Shown: positions 1,982 through 40,080 of the stretch, one piece after another
Layout of the letters: every line of letters begins with the position of its first letter
Numbering within the stretch: position 1 is the stretch's first letter
NCBI GenBank assembly: GCA_965228475.1
Contig: OZ245817.1
Span: 4,398,264 to 4,462,263, forward strand
Direction: 5' to 3'
Source of the DNA: Myxococcota bacterium
GTDB taxonomy: Bacteria; Myxococcota_A; UBA9160; JAFDDA01
DNA: 64,000 bases
Made by a program: the position numbers and the translations under genes
Notes under the pieces: generated by a model
The model's input: only the letters and a program-made list of their open reading frames with translations
What the model was told of the DNA's origin: nothing
Databases searched by the model: none

Positions 1982-3532
1982 CTAGGCCGGGAGCGGGATG
2001 CGGATGCGGAACTCCGTCCCGCCGCCCTCGCGCTCTTCCGCCACGACGTCACCGCCAACGTTCTCCACCTGCGCTCGCACGATCGCGAGCCCGAGGCCCG
2101 TGTGGCGGTCGCGCGGGGCCGAGCCGGGCCGGTAGCTGAAGAAGCGGTCGAAGATGCGCTCGCGGTGTTCGCGCGGGATCCCGGGGCCGCGGTCGAGGAC
2201 GCGCACGACGGCGAAGTCCTCTTCGCGCGAGAGCTCGACCCGGATCCCGGCGTCGGGCGGCGAGAACCCGGCGGCGTTGTCGATGACGTTCTCGATGGCG
2301 CGCGCGATTCCGTCCGCCGGCACCGAGACCTCGACGGGCTCCTCGGGATGGACGACCTCGATGCGCCGCTCGCCGCGCGTCCGGAAGGACTCCGCCAGCC
2401 CGTCGAGGAGCGCGGCGAGATCCACGGCTTCGGGCGCTTCGGGCCAGGCGCCCGCGTCGAGACGGGAGACCTCCTGCACGCCGGCCAGCAGGAGCTCCAT
2501 GCGTGCGATCTCGCGCTGGATCATCTCGAGGAAGCGCTTGCGCTCCCCGGCGTCGTCGACCTCGGCGAGCATCTCGCTCGCGGCGCGGATGGAACCGAGC
2601 GGGTTGCGCAGCTCGTGGGAGACGTCCGAGGCGAAGGATTCGACCCAGCCGATGTGGGCGTCGAGCCTTCGCGTGAGTGCTTCGAGCGCGCGGCCGAGGT
2701 CGCCGATCTCGTCGCGCCGGTTCGAGGCGTGGAGCGGCCCGCGCAGGCGGCCGCGCGCATCGAGCAGCGAGTCGGCCTGGTTGCGCAACCGGACGAGCGG
2801 GCGCGCGATGGTCGTCGAGACGACGAGCGAGAGCACGACCGCGGCGACCAGAGAGGCGAGGAACACGCGCAGCACGTCCATGCGGAGCTGATAGAGCTTC
2901 TGGAGGATCCGGTAGGTCGATTGCGAAACCAGCACGACGCCGGTCACGTCGTCGCCGCGGCGGATCGGCAGCGCGCTGTAGAGCGTGACCGAGCGCTGGC
3001 CGCCCGAGGAGATGCGCGTCGCGGCGCCGTAGTTCCCGTTCAGGGCCGCGCGGATCTCGCGGCCCTCGAGCGGGCCGCCGCCGGTGTAGGCGTCGGCGCT
3101 CGCGTGGGGCGCTTCCGGGGGCAACAGGTACTCGCGCCACAGGCGGAACGGCAGGGCCCCCAGGCGATAGAGCAGCCCGTCCCGCGGCCCGGGAGGCCGG
3201 TTCAGGATCGGGTCGTCCGGGCGCAGCGCGCCGAGCTGGCTCGAGTCCACGAGCAGCCGCCCGGCGGCGTCGAGCACGCGCAGGCGCGCTTCAGATTCCT
3301 GGTCGAGGGCGACGAGCGTCCGACGCGCGTCCTGCTCCCCGAGCGGCGAACGGCCGGAGAGCGCTGCGGCGAGCAGACGGCCCTGGTGCACCATCGCCCG
3401 CTCCTGATCGCGCAGGAGCTGCTGCTCGTAGGTATCGAGGAAGAGGACGCCGGCCGCGGGCAGGAACACGAGCAGGACGTTGAAGGCGAGCAGGCGCACC
3501 TGGATGCGCGCCAGGGCCTTGCGCAGCCTCAC
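1982..3532 (-). CDS. Sensor histidine kinase (dedicated-sortase-system type)
   Basis: TM / periplasmic domain / TM / HAMP layout. H-box SHELRNPLGSI and ATPase boxes (IDNAAGF, GLGLAIV). Start overlaps the RR stop by 4 nt. Confidence 0.85.
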   Translation of the reverse strand: MRLRKALARIQVRLLAFNVLLVFLPAAGVLFLDTYEQQLLRDQERAMVHQGRLLAAALSGRSPLGEQDARRTLVALDQESEARLRVLDAAGRLLVDSSQLGALRPDDPILNRPPGPRDGLLYRLGALPFRLWREYLLPPEAPHASADAYTGGGPLEGREIRAALNGNYGAATRISSGGQRSVTLYSALPIRRGDDVTGVVLVSQSTYRILQKLYQLRMDVLRVFLASLVAAVVLSLVVSTTIARPLVRLRNQADSLLDARGRLRGPLHASNRRDEIGDLGRALEALTRRLDAHIGWVESFASDVSHELRNPLGSIRAASEMLAEVDDAGERKRFLEMIQREIARMELLLAGVQEVSRLDAGAWPEAPEAVDLAALLDGLAESFRTRGERRIEVVHPEEPVEVSVPADGIARAIENVIDNAAGFSPPDAGIRVELSREEDFAVVRVLDRGPGIPREHRERIFDRFFSYRPGSAPRDRHTGLGLAIVRAQVENVGGDVVAEEREGGGTEFRIRIPLPA

Positions 3533-4269
3533 GAAGCCGGGGCCTCCCGGCCCGCTCGACGGTAGCGGTAGCCGAGCCCGTGGACGGTCTCGACGCAGGC
3601 GAAGCCCTCGGTCACGGTCTCGAACTTCCGCCGGATGCGCTTGATGTGGCTATCGATGGTGCGCTCGCTCACGAAGGCGTCGTGCGGGTAGCCCTCTTCC
3701 ATGAGCTGGCGGCGCGTCTTCACCTGGCCGGGGCGCCGCGCCAGCGCCGCGAGGATCAGGAACTCGGTGACGGTGAGGGCGACCTCCTGGCCGTCCCAGC
3801 GGGCGGTGTAGCCGTCGAGGTCGAGCACCAGTTCGTCCACTTCGACGGCGGTGCCGTCGGCGGCGGGCTCGGCGCCACGCAGCAGCGCGAGGCGGCGGAA
3901 GAGCACCTTCACGCGCGCCGTGAGCTCGCGCATCGAGAACGGCTTGCACAGGTAGTCGTCGGCCCCGAGTTCGAGGCCGAGGATGCGGTCGAGCTCCTCG
4001 TCCTTCGAGGTCAGGAAGATGATGGGCATCGTCTCCGAGAGCGTGCGGAGCTTGCGGCAGAGTTCGAGGCCGTCCATGCGGGGCATCAGGATGTCGAGCA
4101 CGGCCACGTCCGGGAGGGCGCCGTTCGAGAAGCTCTCCCACGCGGCGGCGCCGTCCGCATGGCTCTCCACGACGTAGCCTTCGCGATCGAGGGCGAAGCC
4201 CACGCTCTCGCGAATGCTCTGCTCGTCGTCGACCACCGCGACGCGTCCGAGGGCGGGTTCCTTGGCCAT
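3529..4269 (-). CDS. OmpR-family response regulator
   Basis: Receiver domain (VAVVDDEQSI...VLDILMPRMDG...LTSK) plus a winged-helix output domain (...TVHGLGYRY). Confidence 0.9.
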   Translation of the reverse strand: MAKEPALGRVAVVDDEQSIRESVGFALDREGYVVESHADGAAAWESFSNGALPDVAVLDILMPRMDGLELCRKLRTLSETMPIIFLTSKDEELDRILGLELGADDYLCKPFSMRELTARVKVLFRRLALLRGAEPAADGTAVEVDELVLDLDGYTARWDGQEVALTVTEFLILAALARRPGQVKTRRQLMEEGYPHDAFVSERTIDSHIKRIRRKFETVTEGFACVETVHGLGYRYRRAGREAPAS

Positions 4270-6570: not shown

Positions 6571-7160
6571 CGGCGCGTGCCGCGGCGGCAGCGTGCGGAC
6601 TGTTCGCGGCGGTCTGCGCAGCGAACGCGCTGTGGCTTCCGGCGAAAGCCGCGCTCGCCCAGGTGCTCCTCGACGCGGCGTACCAGCGGACCCTCCTCGC
6701 CGGGAACGCCGCGCGCCCGTGGCCGTGGTCCGATGCCTGGCCGGTCGCGCGCATCGAAGCGCCGGAGCGTGGGCAGCGCTTCGTCGTCCTCTCCGATGCC
6801 TCGGGGCGCTCGCTCGCCTTTGCGCCCGGCCACCTTTCGGGAACGGCCCTTCCGGGAGGTGCCGGCACGAGCATCGTCGCCGGGCACCGCGACACGCACT
6901 TCGCGTTCCTGCGCGAGCTCGTCGCGGGGGATCTGGTGACGGTCGAAGACGCACGCGGCGGGCACCATCGCTTCCGGGTGCGGGAGACCGCCGTGGTGCA
7001 CGAACGCGACGCGCGCGTCGCGGGCGTGGGCGTCGCGGACCGGCTCGTGCTCGTGACCTGCTGGCCCTTCGACGCCGTGCGCCCCGGAACGAAGTGGCGC
7101 TACGTCGTGATCGCCGAGCGGGAGGACGCCGCGCCCGCGATCCCCTCGCGGCGCGTCTAG
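6567..7160 (+). CDS. Sortase (proteobacterial / class GN type)
   Basis: GTGA overlap with the target gene. Catalytic His context IVAGHRDTHFAFL, Cys context LVLVTCWPF, and a conserved Arg further on (TKWRYVV). Confidence 0.8.
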   Translation: MTARAAAAACGLFAAVCAANALWLPAKAALAQVLLDAAYQRTLLAGNAARPWPWSDAWPVARIEAPERGQRFVVLSDASGRSLAFAPGHLSGTALPGGAGTSIVAGHRDTHFAFLRELVAGDLVTVEDARGGHHRFRVRETAVVHERDARVAGVGVADRLVLVTCWPFDAVRPGTKWRYVVIAEREDAAPAIPSRRV

Positions 7161-16896: not shown

Positions 16897-17487
16897 CTAG
16901 CGACGCCCCCGGCGCCAGATTCCCACCAGGGCACCGGCAACCAGCAGGGCGGCACTGGGCTCGGGCACGCTTGCGCCGCCATAGGTCCCGTCACCCCCAC
17001 CCACGGTGTAGCTGGCGTTGAGCCCGAAGTTGAAGTGCTCACCGAGGCTGATGAGTCCCGTGGGCCCGAAATCGAAGATCTCGTTGAACCCCATGCCGAT
17101 GCCATAGTGGACTTGATCGAACCCGTGCGAGAAGCTCCCGCTGGGGTTGAGCCCCGGCGGGGTGCCTCCCAGGTGGTAGACACCGGCGAAGCTGTGGAGG
17201 TATCCGTCTTCGAAGACGACGGTGCCCTCGTAGGTGAACGGACCATCGCCTGCGTTGGGCTCCTCCCGGAACGTCACGTTGAGGTCCCAACCCCAGACGC
17301 AACCCCCATAGGCGCAGGAATCGAAGGTCACTTCGCTCGCGGCGCTTGACTCGAGGATGAAGAGCGCGTTGTAGCCGACCTCCGCCTCGTTCGAGTAGAC
17401 GACGGTCAGGCTCACGGCCGAGGCCGGGGCTCCGGAGAACAACATGGCCAGGCCCAGGGCCAAGCCGGCAAGGAATCGAACAGACAT
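16897..17487 (-). CDS. PEP-CTERM sorting-domain secreted protein
   Basis: Signal peptide. C-terminal VPEPSAALLVAGALVGIWRRGRR (PEP motif, TM helix, Arg cluster). ATG behind AAGGAGG. Confidence 0.8.
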   Translation of the reverse strand: MSVRFLAGLALGLAMLFSGAPASAVSLTVVYSNEAEVGYNALFILESSAASEVTFDSCAYGGCVWGWDLNVTFREEPNAGDGPFTYEGTVVFEDGYLHSFAGVYHLGGTPPGLNPSGSFSHGFDQVHYGIGMGFNEIFDFGPTGLISLGEHFNFGLNASYTVGGGDGTYGGASVPEPSAALLVAGALVGIWRRGRR

Positions 17488-17564
17488 GAACAACAACACC
17501 TCCTTGCCCGCCGATGCGTCTAAACAGTCGAAAGGGCAATTTTAATTATACCGAGTGAACTATT
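17488..17564 (-). promoter_or_regulatory. Conserved AT-rich leader, paralogous to 19275..19345
   Basis: About 85% identity over about 52 nt with the other leader (AATAGTTCACTCGGTATAATTAAAATTGCCCTTTCG vs AATATTCCGATCGGTATATTTAAAATTGTCCTTTCG), plus an identical GGGCAAGGAGGTG at the RBS. Confidence 0.6.
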
Positions 17565-17580
17565 TGCAACCGACGTGCCA
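17565..17580 (-). promoter_or_regulatory. Sigma-54 (-24/-12) promoter
   Basis: Minus strand reads TGGCACGTCGGTTGCA, matching TGGCAC-N5-TTGCA exactly. It lies 78 nt upstream of the ATG. Confidence 0.75.
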
Positions 17581-17668: not shown

Positions 17669-17682
17669 GGAACGACGGTTCC
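17669..17682. promoter_or_regulatory. Candidate enhancer (UAS) palindrome, proximal
   Basis: GGAACGACGGTTCC (GGAAC-N4-GTTCC), about 110 nt upstream of the -12 element. Confidence 0.55.
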
Positions 17683-17699
17683 TCTCTAGCCACCAGAGA

Positions 17700-17713
17700 G
17701 GAAAAATTGTTCC
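17700..17713. promoter_or_regulatory. Candidate enhancer (UAS) palindrome, distal
   Basis: GGAAAAATTGTTCC, 31 bp centre-to-centre from the proximal site. Confidence 0.5.
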
Positions 17714-17744
17714 GTCGGTCTATTCGCATGGGGACGCCTTTCCC

Positions 17745-18707
17745 TTACGGGTGATGCGTCAGCTCAGGATCGATGCGGATGACACAGGGCCGTCCGAAAT
17801 CGTCGTCCCGGATCTCGAAACGCCACTCGGGCGCCATCCAGATGATCTGGGCCCAGGGCAGCTGGGCCTCGTAGATCGCCTGGACCGAGATGTACTCGGT
17901 GAGCTCCGGGCATCGATCGTCGAGGATCGTGATGTCGACGGTGGTCGTTTGCTCGTGGGCAGGAAACGTGAAGGGCAACAGCTCCGGATAGGTCGTTACC
18001 GGCCCATCGAAGTCTTCCCCCGCCTTCGCGGTCGAGCCGAAGGCGATCCAGAAGTCCAGAACCGGGATGGCGAAACGCCCAGAGTGCATGGCGTAGTAGT
18101 CCGTCACCGGTTCGTCGACCTTGAACATCTGCGAGAAGGTGAGGGTCTCGGTCCGCGTGGGCGACTCGTCGAAGGGCGCGTTCTCCGCGGTGACGTCGAT
18201 CAACGGAGGCCAGGCCGTGAACTGTGCACCCTGGATACAGATCGTTCCGTTCTGTTCCATCTGCGCCCACAGCGTATGGAGGCCGGGGTTGAGCGCGTAG
18301 CCCGGGGGCTCGTCGTCGAAGTCCGACGTGATCACGCTGATGAAGGCGTACTGATCGGCGGTCTTCACCTGCTCGACGCCGCCGGTGGTGTTCCCGTCCA
18401 GCCACAGCGTGACGAAGGGGCCGAGCGCCGCGTTCGGAAGAGTCCAGCTCAGCTCGAGGTTGCCCGACCCGTTGTGGTAGAGCGGCCATTCCGTGCCGAA
18501 TGAGCCTGAGGTGACGAGGAACGGTTGGCAGCCCGCCCCTTGAACGGCGCCGATCGAAGGCGGCTCCGGTGTTGCCGTCGGGCTGAGCGGGGATCCGCTG
18601 GGCTCGACCGGAACGACCCCGGAGAGCGAGGCAACGGCAGGGAGAGCGAGAAAGAACGTCACCGAAGCCAGCAGTGCGGTGCGTTGGACGAGAGTTCCGA
18701 ATTTCAT
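17745..18707 (-). CDS. Secreted protein with C-terminal Calx-beta-like domain
   Basis: ATG behind AAGGAAAC. Signal peptide. Calx-beta pattern GSTAKAGEDFDGPVTTYPELLPFTFPAHEQTTTVDITILDDRCPELTEYISV. Confidence 0.7.
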   Translation of the reverse strand: MKFGTLVQRTALLASVTFFLALPAVASLSGVVPVEPSGSPLSPTATPEPPSIGAVQGAGCQPFLVTSGSFGTEWPLYHNGSGNLELSWTLPNAALGPFVTLWLDGNTTGGVEQVKTADQYAFISVITSDFDDEPPGYALNPGLHTLWAQMEQNGTICIQGAQFTAWPPLIDVTAENAPFDESPTRTETLTFSQMFKVDEPVTDYYAMHSGRFAIPVLDFWIAFGSTAKAGEDFDGPVTTYPELLPFTFPAHEQTTTVDITILDDRCPELTEYISVQAIYEAQLPWAQIIWMAPEWRFEIRDDDFGRPCVIRIDPELTHHP

Positions 18708-18782
18708 GGTGGGTTTCCTTGGTCGAGGGCCGGCCTGCGGGTGGGCCACGCCCGTCGAACGGGCCCACCCCTCCAGGCGAGT

Positions 18783-19274
18783 TCAGGGCTGTCGAGAGCC
18801 GAGCGGCGGGCGGCGAGCGCCGGCCAGGGCGACCACGACGAGCAGGGCAAGGGCGGGCTCGGGCACACCGACGTGTCTTCCACTGAAGATGAAATCGCCG
18901 GACGGCGAGCCCCCGTCATGGACCGCCGAGTAGACGTCCATCCCGTTGCCGTGGGGGACGGTGCCGCTGAGCGACGTGCCGGTGGTTCCGGCGAAGAGCC
19001 AGGTCTCACCGTCCTCGTGGGTACTTCTCCCTGACCAGGCGAGCACACCTCCGGCTTCGCTGAAGAGGATGCTCACGTCCCAGAAACAATTCCCGGCGAC
19101 GCAGGAGTTGAAGGCGACGTCCTGGCCGCCGTCGAGGACGACTTCCAGACGCAGGCCGTAGCTCTCGGCGCTGTTGTCCTCGAACTCCACGTTGATGGTC
19201 ACCGCCGACGCAGGGCCGGCGGCCAGAATCAGAGCCAACCCGAGGACCGGCCAGGCAAAGGACCGAGCAGACAT
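18783..19274 (-). CDS. PEP-CTERM sorting-domain secreted protein (paralog of 16897..17487)
   Basis: ATG 7 nt after AAGGAGG. C-terminal VPEPALALLVVVALAGARRPP. Shares FNSCVAGNCFW / FDSCAYGGCVW with the paralog. Confidence 0.8.
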   Translation of the reverse strand: MSARSFAWPVLGLALILAAGPASAVTINVEFEDNSAESYGLRLEVVLDGGQDVAFNSCVAGNCFWDVSILFSEAGGVLAWSGRSTHEDGETWLFAGTTGTSLSGTVPHGNGMDVYSAVHDGGSPSGDFIFSGRHVGVPEPALALLVVVALAGARRPPLGSRQP

Positions 19275-19345
19275 GAGCACACCTCCTTGCCCTTTCGAGT
19301 CAATAAAACCGAAAGGACAATTTTAAATATACCGATCGGAATATT
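19275..19345 (-). promoter_or_regulatory. Conserved AT-rich leader with an SD-proximal hairpin
   Basis: See 17488..17564. Hairpin TGTCCTTTCG-N11-CGAAAGGGCA lies immediately 5' of AAGGAGG. Confidence 0.6.
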
Positions 19346-19361
19346 TGCAACGGGCGTGCCA
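19346..19361 (-). promoter_or_regulatory. Sigma-54 (-24/-12) promoter
   Basis: Minus strand reads TGGCACGCCCGTTGCA, 72 nt upstream of the ATG. Confidence 0.75.
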
Positions 19362-19451
19362 TCCGGGGCAGCGCACGGACTGCCGGGCGCAAGCCTTCGC
19401 CGGCGAAGGGATTTCCGAATGGCTGAGGAACGGAGCGAGCCCGGGGCGTTG

Positions 19452-19465
19452 GGAACGCCGGTTCC
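19452..19465. promoter_or_regulatory. Candidate enhancer (UAS) palindrome, proximal
   Basis: GGAACGCCGGTTCC. The flanks TTGGGAACGNCGGTTCC are shared with 17665..17682. Confidence 0.55.
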
Positions 19466-19482
19466 GTCCGAGCCGCAAAATG

Positions 19483-19496
19483 GGAAAAACGTTTCC
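19483..19496. promoter_or_regulatory. Candidate enhancer (UAS) palindrome, distal
   Basis: GGAAAAACGTTTCC, 31 bp centre-to-centre from the proximal site. Confidence 0.5.
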
Positions 19497-39149: not shown

Positions 39150-39163
39150 GGAAAGGGTTTTCC
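39150..39163. promoter_or_regulatory. Candidate UAS palindrome of the same type as at 17700 and 19483
   Basis: GGAAAGGGTTTTCC, about 140 nt upstream of the -12 element at 39294. Confidence 0.4.
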
Positions 39164-39280
39164 CTTCGCGCGCACCCAGTTTTCCCTCCCGGCCAAGAGT
39201 CCACATCCGGGAAACCCGCCAAGGTCCTGATTTCCTTTCATTTTCACGCGCCTGGCCGCGGTGGGGCGGCGAGCCCCAGT

Positions 39281-39296
39281 TGGCTCGAAACTTGCT
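39281..39296 (+). promoter_or_regulatory. Sigma-54 (-24/-12) promoter
   Basis: TGGCTCGAAACTTGCT has GG and GC at the correct 10-nt spacing. It lies 40-50 nt upstream of the candidate ATGs. Confidence 0.55.
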
Positions 39297-39336
39297 CTCT
39301 TTTCGGTTGCTTCTCTCTTGCTGCTCGAAGACAAGG

Positions 39337-40080
39337 ATGCGACCCATGCGATTCCGCGCCCTCCCGATCCTCGCCACTGCCCTGCTCGTCGCCGGCCCGG
39401 CCTCGGCCCTCACGAGCTACGGGGACTTCAGCGGCGCCGACCTGGACTTCATCGACGTGAACGAGACGTCCCTGTTCGGCGACCCGGAGCCCTTGTTCGG
39501 CGCGCCGACCACGGCCGGGAACTCGCTCTTGTTCTTCCCGACGACCTTCACGGCCACCAGCGCTGGAGGCGGCGTCGACGGCACGGGCTCCCTTCTGAAC
39601 CTCACCCTCGAGGCCACGGGCGGGAACACGCTCACGACCTTCTCGATCACCGAGTTCGGTGACACCTCGCTCTTCGGCGCGGGGACGGCGGCCACCGGAA
39701 GCTTCATCGGCCTCTCCGGCTTCCTGACCGTCACGGAGGATCTGAGCGGATCCATCACGCCCGTCGTGATTCCCTTTACCGGCGTCGTGACGCCGACGAC
39801 CGTGCCCGCTGGCACCTTCACGCTGCCGACCAACCCGGGCGTGACCCTCTGGACGGCGAGCGTGGTCATCGACATCACGAGCTACGTGCCGGACGCGACC
39901 GTCGCCGAGCTTCAGCTCAACAACGTGCTCAACGCTGCGAGCGAAGCCGGCACGAGCGCCCTGATCCAGAAGAAGGTCGTGAGCGGCCCGTCGGTCATTA
40001 TCACGGTGCCCGAGCCGGCCACCCTCGCGGTGATCGCCATCGGCCTCCTGGGCGCGCTCGGCCTTCGCCGCCGCGCCTAG
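39337..40080 (+). CDS. PEP-CTERM sorting-domain secreted protein
   Basis: Start at ATG 39337 or 39346, since the track start 39280 lies inside the promoter. Signal peptide. C-terminal VPEPATLAVIAIGLLGALGLRRRA. Confidence 0.8.
   Translation: MRPMRFRALPILATALLVAGPASALTSYGDFSGADLDFIDVNETSLFGDPEPLFGAPTTAGNSLLFFPTTFTATSAGGGVDGTGSLLNLTLEATGGNTLTTFSITEFGDTSLFGAGTAATGSFIGLSGFLTVTEDLSGSITPVVIPFTGVVTPTTVPAGTFTLPTNPGVTLWTASVVIDITSYVPDATVAELQLNNVLNAASEAGTSALIQKKVVSGPSVIITVPEPATLAVIAIGLLGALGLRRRA

Follow-up and report, generated by a model that had tools for sequence, protein, structure and literature searches.

Tandem copies of a 14-bp dyad, GGAA-N6-TTCC, precede two sigma-54 promoters in a 64,000-nucleotide stretch of the genome of a Myxococcota bacterium (contig OZ245817.1, positions 4,398,264 to 4,462,263; this whole stretch is referred to as the window, and its positions are counted from its first letter). 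As judged from sequence, these pairs most probably (at a rough probability of 0.85) constitute the upstream activating sequence (UAS) of a sigma-54 activator controlling genes of PEP-CTERM proteins. Systems of PEP-CTERM proteins and exosortases are widely distributed among the bacteria of sediments, soils and biofilms. The genome harbouring the window is a single contig of 5.0 Mb with a GC content of 70.5%, and the two loci that carry the pairs are composed as follows.

Locus 1
17700..17713, putative distal activator site GGAAAAATTGTTCC, centred at about -152 from the inferred transcription start
17669..17682, putative proximal activator site GGAACGACGGTTCC, centred at about -121 from the inferred start
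17566..17580, minus strand, sigma-54 promoter TGGCACGTCGGTTGC, a 10/10 match to TGGCAC-N5-TTGC
16897..17487, minus strand, gene of a 196-aa secreted PEP-CTERM protein with a signal peptide, ending ...SVPEPSAALLVAGALVGIWRRGRR

Locus 2
19483..19496, putative distal activator site GGAAAAACGTTTCC, centred at about -154 from the inferred start
19452..19465, putative proximal activator site GGAACGCCGGTTCC, centred at about -123 from the inferred start
19347..19361, minus strand, sigma-54 promoter TGGCACGCCCGTTGC, a 10/10 match to TGGCAC-N5-TTGC
18783..19274, minus strand, gene of a 163-aa secreted protein, paralog of the locus 1 product, with VPEP, a hydrophobic stretch and an Arg tail
17745..18707, minus strand, gene of a 320-aa secreted protein, directly downstream of the 163-aa protein gene

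Tandem dyads upstream of sigma-54 promoters

All four sites listed in an earlier note on this DNA were found in the sequence at their positions, with a start-to-start spacing of 31 bp in locus 1 and locus 2 alike. Their centres are separated from the C of the -12 GC by 109.5/140.5 bp (locus 1) and 111.5/142.5 bp (locus 2), which agrees with the 110-112 and 141-143 nt that the note had estimated, and both of the promoters it had named as sigma-54 promoters reach 10/10 to the consensus on the minus strand. Within a site, the centres of the GGAA and TTCC half-sites are 10 bp apart, i.e. one helical turn (dyad symmetry).

The motif is overrepresented in the window, with 6 sites against 0.73 expected from shuffles (none of 100 shuffles reached 6). 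In the whole genome, 84 exact sites were found, including 9 pairs within 40 bp that fall into 7 clusters, while the analytic expectation for close pairs (84 x 84 / 5.0e6 x 40) is approximately 0.06. All 7 clusters are located in regulatory DNA, and thus the possibility that such pairs are common at random positions, which the earlier note would have taken as a refutation, was not borne out. Six of the 7 point at a sigma-54-like promoter from 75-145 bp upstream, and the seventh, composed of three sites, is found upstream of a gene encoding a bacterial enhancer-binding protein (bEBP) of the response-regulator type.

The same association is seen from the side of the promoters. Around the 154 genome sequences that match TGGCAC-N5-TTGC at 9/10 or better, there are 17 exact sites in the region -260..-30 and none in the region +45..+275, whereas the genomic density predicts 0.6. 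A search for sigma-54-like promoters accompanied by two sites 19-23 or 29-32 bp apart (one of them exact, with at most 2 mismatches in total) revealed 15 promoters that have, 100-200 bp upstream of them, a pair in phase at a spacing of 20-22 or 30-31 bp. When four palindromes of equal composition were used as controls in the same search, 0, 1, 0 and 0 promoters were obtained. Spacings of 21-22 bp (16 cases), 31 bp (4), 40 bp (3) and 19 bp (3) occur and practically none otherwise, with 0.055 expected per value; these amount to two, three and four helical turns. The site centres lie between -100 and -163 at 14 of the 15 promoters, and the weakest candidate (genome position 4080229) has them at -168 and -198. 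In this genome, the 31-bp arrangement is clear at loci 1 and 2 only; the one further pair of this spacing class, at 4080229, is weak and spaced 30 bp, and the other pairs are spaced 20-22 bp.

Loci 1 and 2 are not independent of each other. Their gene products are paralogs (31% amino acid identity), both being small secreted proteins with a C-terminus made up of VPEP, a hydrophobic stretch and an Arg-rich tail, and therefore the identical spacing of the sites was inherited rather than acquired twice. The telling signal at these loci is instead the retention of the sites (identity of 11/14 and 16/17) while the approximately 85-nt spacer between UAS and promoter diverged to the random level. The earlier statement that the surrounding non-coding DNA is otherwise not alignable thus holds for this spacer and for the DNA upstream of the sites, and fails for the promoter, a 24-nt leader block and the ribosome-binding site (RBS), which, together with both dyads, are kept in the alignment of the two control regions. 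Between -200 and -30 of the two aligned loci, no further conserved element was found besides the dyads.

The AT-rich leader block (TCGGTATAwTTAAAATTGyCCTTTCG) occupies 17528-17556 and 19309-19337 on the minus strand, approximately +3 to +30 of the inferred transcripts, and the RBS context GGGCAAGGAGGTG is likewise preserved amid diverged flanks. The block was not seen at the remaining regulon promoters and might represent an operator, or an element acting in the RNA, particular to this pair of paralogs.

It may be asked whether the palindromes bind any protein, or are leftovers of the paralog duplication, or hairpins in RNA or DNA that end or stabilise upstream transcripts. Apart from the paralogy itself, such a reading could draw on the position of both pairs, directly downstream of the stop codon of the preceding gene, and on locus 1, where a perfect inverted repeat of 9 bp connects the two sites and folding beats that of shuffles (z -3.0 and -4.6). 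Locus 2, however, has no such fold (z -0.4 and -0.95), and neither duplication nor hairpins can explain the same motif, helical phase and promoter distance at unrelated genes across the genome and the order, which makes this explanation hardly credible. A terminator or hairpin function in particular was rejected, as no terminator was called and unusual folding is confined to locus 1.

The inverted repeat of locus 1 (TTCCTCTCT-N7-AGAGAGGAA, 17678-17703) bridges the two sites and continues into an imperfect stem of approximately 16 bp, located 32-76 nt past the stop codon of the 320-aa protein gene. It is absent at locus 2, and it may be a 3'-end hairpin lacking a U-tract or may be incidental.

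With regard to the products, the 196-aa protein scores 19.8 bits for PF07589, slightly below the cut-off of 20.7, and the 163-aa protein gave no match in a Pfam search. The 320-aa secreted protein, whose gene is probably co-transcribed with that of the 163-aa protein, had no match in a family search.

The predicted regulon and its conservation in relatives

Ten of the 15 promoters that carry the module drive PEP-CTERM genes, of which there are approximately 54 in this genome of roughly 4000 genes. One of the 15 is found in the window as well (locus 3, 39150-40080), with the following features.

39150..39163, exact distal site GGAAAGGGTTTTCC
39172..39185, degenerate proximal partner GCACCCAGTTTTCC, 22 bp from the distal site, with an intact right half-site
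39281..39295, plus strand, sigma-54-like promoter TGGCTCGAAACTTGC, 9/10 to the consensus
39346..40080, plus strand, gene of a 244-aa PEP-CTERM protein (PF07589, 28.5 bits, above the cut-off)

The sixth match in the window (GGAACGGCCCTTCC, 6840-6853) lies within a coding open reading frame with no sigma-54 promoter near it and is probably due to chance.

Further predicted members of the regulon are an 859-aa exported protein, an unknown protein followed by a MoxR-like ATPase, and two proteins of recognizable families.

Genome position 2168606, 104-aa stand-alone PilZ protein (PF07238, 36.8 bits)
Genome position 4080339, 671-aa GH20-type glycosidase, whose promoter pair is the weakest of the 15

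Because PEP-CTERM cargo is accompanied by a PilZ protein and a GH20-type glycosidase, the regulon looks like a programme for cell surface and matrix.

Footprinting of orthologous promoters was attempted for the window loci, and for the 171-bp regulatory DNA and the 163-aa protein no counterpart was found in 40 relatives; the sole weak match to the cargo of the window came from one family-level relative. Since these cargo genes are lineage-specific, the evidence for conservation was drawn from the level of the regulon. Exact pairs with a gap of 5-19 bp are present in 27 of 41 same-order genomes, whereas a control pattern, reversed and not complemented, gave 0/41. The gaps in these relatives concentrate at 8 bp (approximately 38 cases) and at 15-17 bp (9 cases), with none at 12-14 bp. 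At the loci examined, the pairs lie 76-132 bp upstream of sigma-54-like promoters of genes for secreted or PEP-CTERM proteins, and those of the 29-30-bp spacing class are found at -80/-110 to -115/-144 relative to sigma-54-like promoters of such genes, in many cases ahead of one family of small secreted proteins. A sample drawn from the whole phylum had pairs with a gap of 7-9 bp in 9 of 24 same-order genomes and in none of 127 others (the control gave 0 throughout), and so within this sample the motif is restricted to the order of the window. The asymmetry of 17 upstream versus 0 downstream sites, the helical phasing and this order-wide conservation together support the enhancer function proposed in the earlier note.

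In four relatives, the loci concerned (L106, L109, L110 and L111 in genomes G017, G031, G039 and G011, respectively) consistently have a 30-bp UAS at approximately -110/-80. Their cargo proteins are small, secreted and of one family, with Asp-rich repeats of a calcium-binding-like kind and a C-terminus that contains Cys, and the spacing class of the UAS may track the cargo family.

The anatomy, statistics and conservation of the module were computed, and from these we infer how it might work with respect to binding, dependence on phosphorylation, looping and the identity of the activator. Each GGAA-N6-TTCC dyad would be bound by one dimer of an NtrC-family bEBP, and two dyads facing the same side of the helix would form a UAS centred approximately 100-160 bp upstream of a -24/-12 promoter, with a geometry of 31 bp (three turns) at window loci 1 and 2 and of 21-22 bp (two turns) at most of the others. 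Upon phosphorylation of the receiver by a partner kinase, the bound dimers would nucleate an active AAA+ ring. The DNA would then loop, the ring would contact the sigma-54 holoenzyme closed at TGGCAC-N5-TTGC, and ATP hydrolysis would open the promoter. The predicted output is a regulon of approximately 15 promoters, two-thirds of which would serve PEP-CTERM (exosortase-sorted) secreted proteins.

The candidate activator and its polysaccharide locus

Approximately 22 bEBP genes were found in this genome, and of these only one has exact sites (three of them) within 1.5 kb upstream. The gene, the sites and a neighbouring bEBP gene are as follows (genome positions).

1193183-1194609, candidate activator, a 475-aa NtrC-type bEBP of REC-AAA+-HTH_8 architecture
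1192919-1192972, triple GGAA-N6-TTCC site with starts at 1192919, 1192938 and 1192959, i.e. 19 and 21 bp apart
1186762-1188204, neighbouring bEBP, 51% identical to the candidate, 5 kb away and co-transcribed with the gene of a PAS histidine kinase

The domains of the candidate are well recognized (PF00072, 109.1 bits; PF00158, Sigma54_activat, 239 bits; PF02954, HTH_8, 44 bits), and its sequence contains EKGAFTGA, the Walker A motif GPSGTGKE and the receiver residues DD...D...S...K. The triple site is located 224-264 bp upstream of its gene. In approximately 70 orthologous loci from metagenome-assembled genomes (MAGs; 62-77% identity), sites occur at 1.86 per kb in the region -450..-20 and at 0.023 per kb elsewhere in the loci, an approximately 80-fold difference, and in the alignment of the orthologs three tandem sites spaced by about 20 bp are the sole conserved block upstream, the third of them merging into a conserved TT(A/C)CACAC block. 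Homologs from other phyla (53-59% identity) are mostly devoid of such sites. Judged by these features, the protein encoded at 1193183-1194609 has slightly better than even odds of being the activator that acts through this UAS, and it would be autoregulated via its own three tandem sites.

The distribution of the candidate partly matches that of the motif. Orthologs of at least 67% identity were found in 19 of 23 other same-order genomes sampled and in none from the rest of the phylum, the homologs in the sister order being 55-63% identical. In the phylum sample, all 9 genomes with pairs have the candidate (as their own copy or as an ortholog), and the 4 same-order genomes without an ortholog also lack pairs. 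The phylogenetic profile is therefore partly informative, agreeing phylum-wide and being blurred within the order by fragmented MAGs. One apparent absence of an ortholog is a frameshifted copy with sites upstream, beside an export gene, and another concerns a contig of 1.9 kb.

In the frameshifted case (L103; G022:C4:133500-137800, positions 2003-3605), the ortholog is split over several frames, with 83% identity in the receiver part, and it keeps two exact sites approximately 140-180 bp upstream. This split gene is either the product of an assembly indel error or a pseudogene.

Several results weigh against the reading of the pairs as a UAS or against this choice of activator. These are: (i) the presence of the module at only approximately 10-13 of the about 54 PEP-CTERM genes; (ii) the use of the motif core to pick the sites, which makes its information content circular, the only evidence independent of site selection being the flanks, positions, spacing, gene association and cross-genome conservation; (iii) the existence of same-order MAGs with UAS modules in which no ortholog of at least 60% identity was detected; (iv) the co-occurrence of motif and activator within the order, which is not significant (P ~0.13); (v) the scarcity of orthologs (9 of 68) in which the triple site is followed, ahead of the start codon, by a good sigma-54 promoter; and (vi) the triple site itself, which could equally be the operator of another regulator that controls the polysaccharide operon.

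Some of these points would fit a genuine sigma-54 enhancer to which another bEBP binds, be it the neighbour at 1186762-1188204 or another of the 22, in which case the triple site would be a cascade input to the polysaccharide operon and not a means of autoregulation. Besides the MAGs that have UAS, sigma-54 promoter and PEP-CTERM modules without a detected ortholog of the candidate, it is in favour of this that the neighbour has its own kinase, while no kinase gene adjoins the candidate, and that paralogs of this second type of bEBP are widespread in the order (matches of 50-54%). On the other hand, no site is present within 1.5 kb upstream of the neighbouring gene or of any other bEBP gene except the candidate's, some of the absences are assembly artefacts, and the conserved triple site is tied to the orthologs of the candidate in approximately 70 loci. 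Taken together, binding by another bEBP appears rather unlikely.

The small number of orthologs with a sigma-54 promoter also bears on the control of the activator gene itself. In this genome, a sigma-54 promoter was sought downstream of the triple site and not found. Positive sigma-54 autoregulation was therefore rejected as a general rule (promoter in 9/68 orthologs, not in this genome), and since most orthologs lack such a promoter, the candidate more likely acts on a sigma-70-type promoter at its own gene, where it may repress or activate. At that gene the third site runs into TT(A/C)CACAC, usually with no sigma-54 promoter after it, and so resembles an operator over a sigma-70-type promoter. 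The dyads could thus be imagined to bind an architectural protein, an anti-activator or a repressor rather than a bEBP; such a protein would modulate these promoters, while the genuine activator would bind at other sites or act without binding DNA. Yet bEBPs themselves commonly repress sigma-70 promoters through the same sites, as is the case for NtrC (glnAp1/glnL) and PspF. Moreover, the sites lie at -100 to -160, in tandem and in phase, and are associated with -24/-12 promoters exclusively, which is a signature of bEBPs, and the window loci offer no alternative conserved element between -200 and -30. A binder outside the bEBP family is accordingly considered very improbable, and binding by an NtrC-family activator is retained as the preferred explanation.

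The candidate gene is the first one of an XrtA-like exopolysaccharide locus (genome positions 1193183-1209765), followed by genes of an export protein, a TIGR03016-like outer-membrane protein, a chain-length determinant, a TIGR03015-like ATPase and, further on, a PrsT-like TPR lipoprotein of 819 aa (1207306-1209765). The scores of these proteins are slightly below the model cut-offs: TIGR03027, 167.9 against 180 bits; TIGR03007, 217.5 against 278.85 bits; TIGR03015, 299.8 against 324.5 bits; and, for the lipoprotein, TIGR02917 (PrsT), 296.6 against 312.2 bits. The row has the appearance of a divergent XrtA system of Myxococcota. A gene of a Crp-family regulator sits inside it.

Comparison with known systems

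To our knowledge, the regulation of PEP-CTERM genes has been predicted only for Proteobacteria (PrsK/PrsR), and even there the enhancer has not been footprinted. The GGAA-N6-TTCC enhancer is apparently a non-orthologous variant of this known type of regulon, with a DNA motif that appears undescribed (no description of it in such a role was found in the literature searched, a search of limited coverage). A second lineage, unrelated to the first and represented by metagenomes only, thus gains a cis-element that can be tested and a specific candidate for its activator, and the list of the regulon (approximately 10 PEP-CTERM cargo genes, the PilZ protein and the GH20 glycosidase) would tie the expression of exosortase cargo to a polysaccharide locus. 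The general picture of sigma-54 controlling functions of the cell exterior remains unchanged.

The closest parallel is the PEP-CTERM box/PrsK-PrsR-PrsT regulon, whose motif was found in Proteobacteria only, other motifs being predicted as well (Haft et al. 2006, PMC1569441). RpoN dependence of a PEP-CTERM gene was shown experimentally in Aquincola (PMC9850573), and in Desulfovibrio a DAP-chip with a PrsR-type regulator enriched PEP-CTERM gene targets (PMC3333781). The system described here shares with that regulon: (i) mostly single-gene PEP-CTERM operons with long upstream regions; (ii) a -24/-12 sigma-54 promoter preceded by a conserved, at times repeated activator motif; (iii) a bEBP of the REC-AAA+-Fis type, here the candidate activator, encoded beside exopolysaccharide genes; and (iv) exosortases, of which two of the EpsH family are present (TIGR02602, cut-off 105.55 bits; scores of 166.6 and 127.9 bits). 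A TPR lipoprotein resembling PrsT, with a score slightly under the model cut-off, is encoded in the same locus.

The two differ in the motif, in its position, in the kinase and in the host. Motif 1 of the PEP-CTERM box is a 17-nt element ending in TTTACA, located on average 63 nt (32-92) upstream of the sigma-54 motif (PMC1569441), whereas here a tandem GGAA-N6-TTCC dyad is used and the proximal site is 75-120 nt from the promoter. In the region -110..-25, TTTACA occurs at none of the 15 regulon promoters and at none of the 154 promoter-like sequences. No kinase gene stands beside the candidate regulator, and the host belongs to an uncultured order of Myxococcota, not to Proteobacteria. The earlier note had put a PrsR-like protein first among the activators to be tried, but no protein reaches the cut-off of either TIGR02915 or TIGR02916. 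For PrsR (TIGR02915; cut-off 502.6 bits), the highest score in the genome is 418.5 bits, and for PrsK (TIGR02916; cut-off 300 bits) it is 97.9 bits, covering a generic kinase core only (positions 458-679). The candidate, a different NtrC-family protein, reaches 400.2 bits on TIGR02915 in the protein scan (395.5 in the genome scan) and does about equally well with the models of AtoC and NtrC. On these cut-offs, PrsR/PrsK was rejected as cognate system, and the TTTACA motif was rejected because it is absent. As neither PrsR, nor PrsK, nor motif 1 was found, the system works like the PEP-CTERM-box regulon without being a member of it.

A broader scenario, which we regard as possible though doubtful, is that an order-level lineage of Myxococcota replaced PrsK/PrsR by a non-orthologous, kinase-orphan bEBP, autoregulated via a triple operator, and that it uses one dyad in two conserved architectures on different cargo families. 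If this were true, two-turn and three-turn tandems could give one regulon more than one activation threshold or oligomer geometry.

With respect to protein architecture, the closest structures are those of NtrC1 and NtrC4 of Aquifex aeolicus (1ny5, 4l4u and 3dzd; E 1e-106), which have the same REC and AAA+ arrangement as the candidate. The match is limited to residues 5-379 and is therefore uninformative on the DNA-binding domain and its specificity.

With respect to the layout of the sites, the nearest counterpart is NtrC at the enteric glnAp2 promoter, where two dyad sites approximately three turns apart, with half-sites TGCACC-N5-GGTGCA, are centred at roughly -140 and -108. The three-turn arrangement in the window, centred at approximately -122 and -153, is closely similar, and by analogy the dyads would serve an activator of the REC-AAA+-Fis type as a scaffold for oligomerisation and for looping to the sigma-54 holoenzyme. 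NtrC also binds the sigma-70 promoters of its own operon, a feature to be set beside the role suggested above for the candidate at its own gene. Unlike at glnAp2, the half-sites have another sequence, the regulon is another one (nitrogen assimilation in the case of NtrC) and the two-turn spacing is the commoner here. With one dyad occurring at both two-turn and three-turn spacing, the Myxococcota regulon offers a natural experiment on enhancer geometry.

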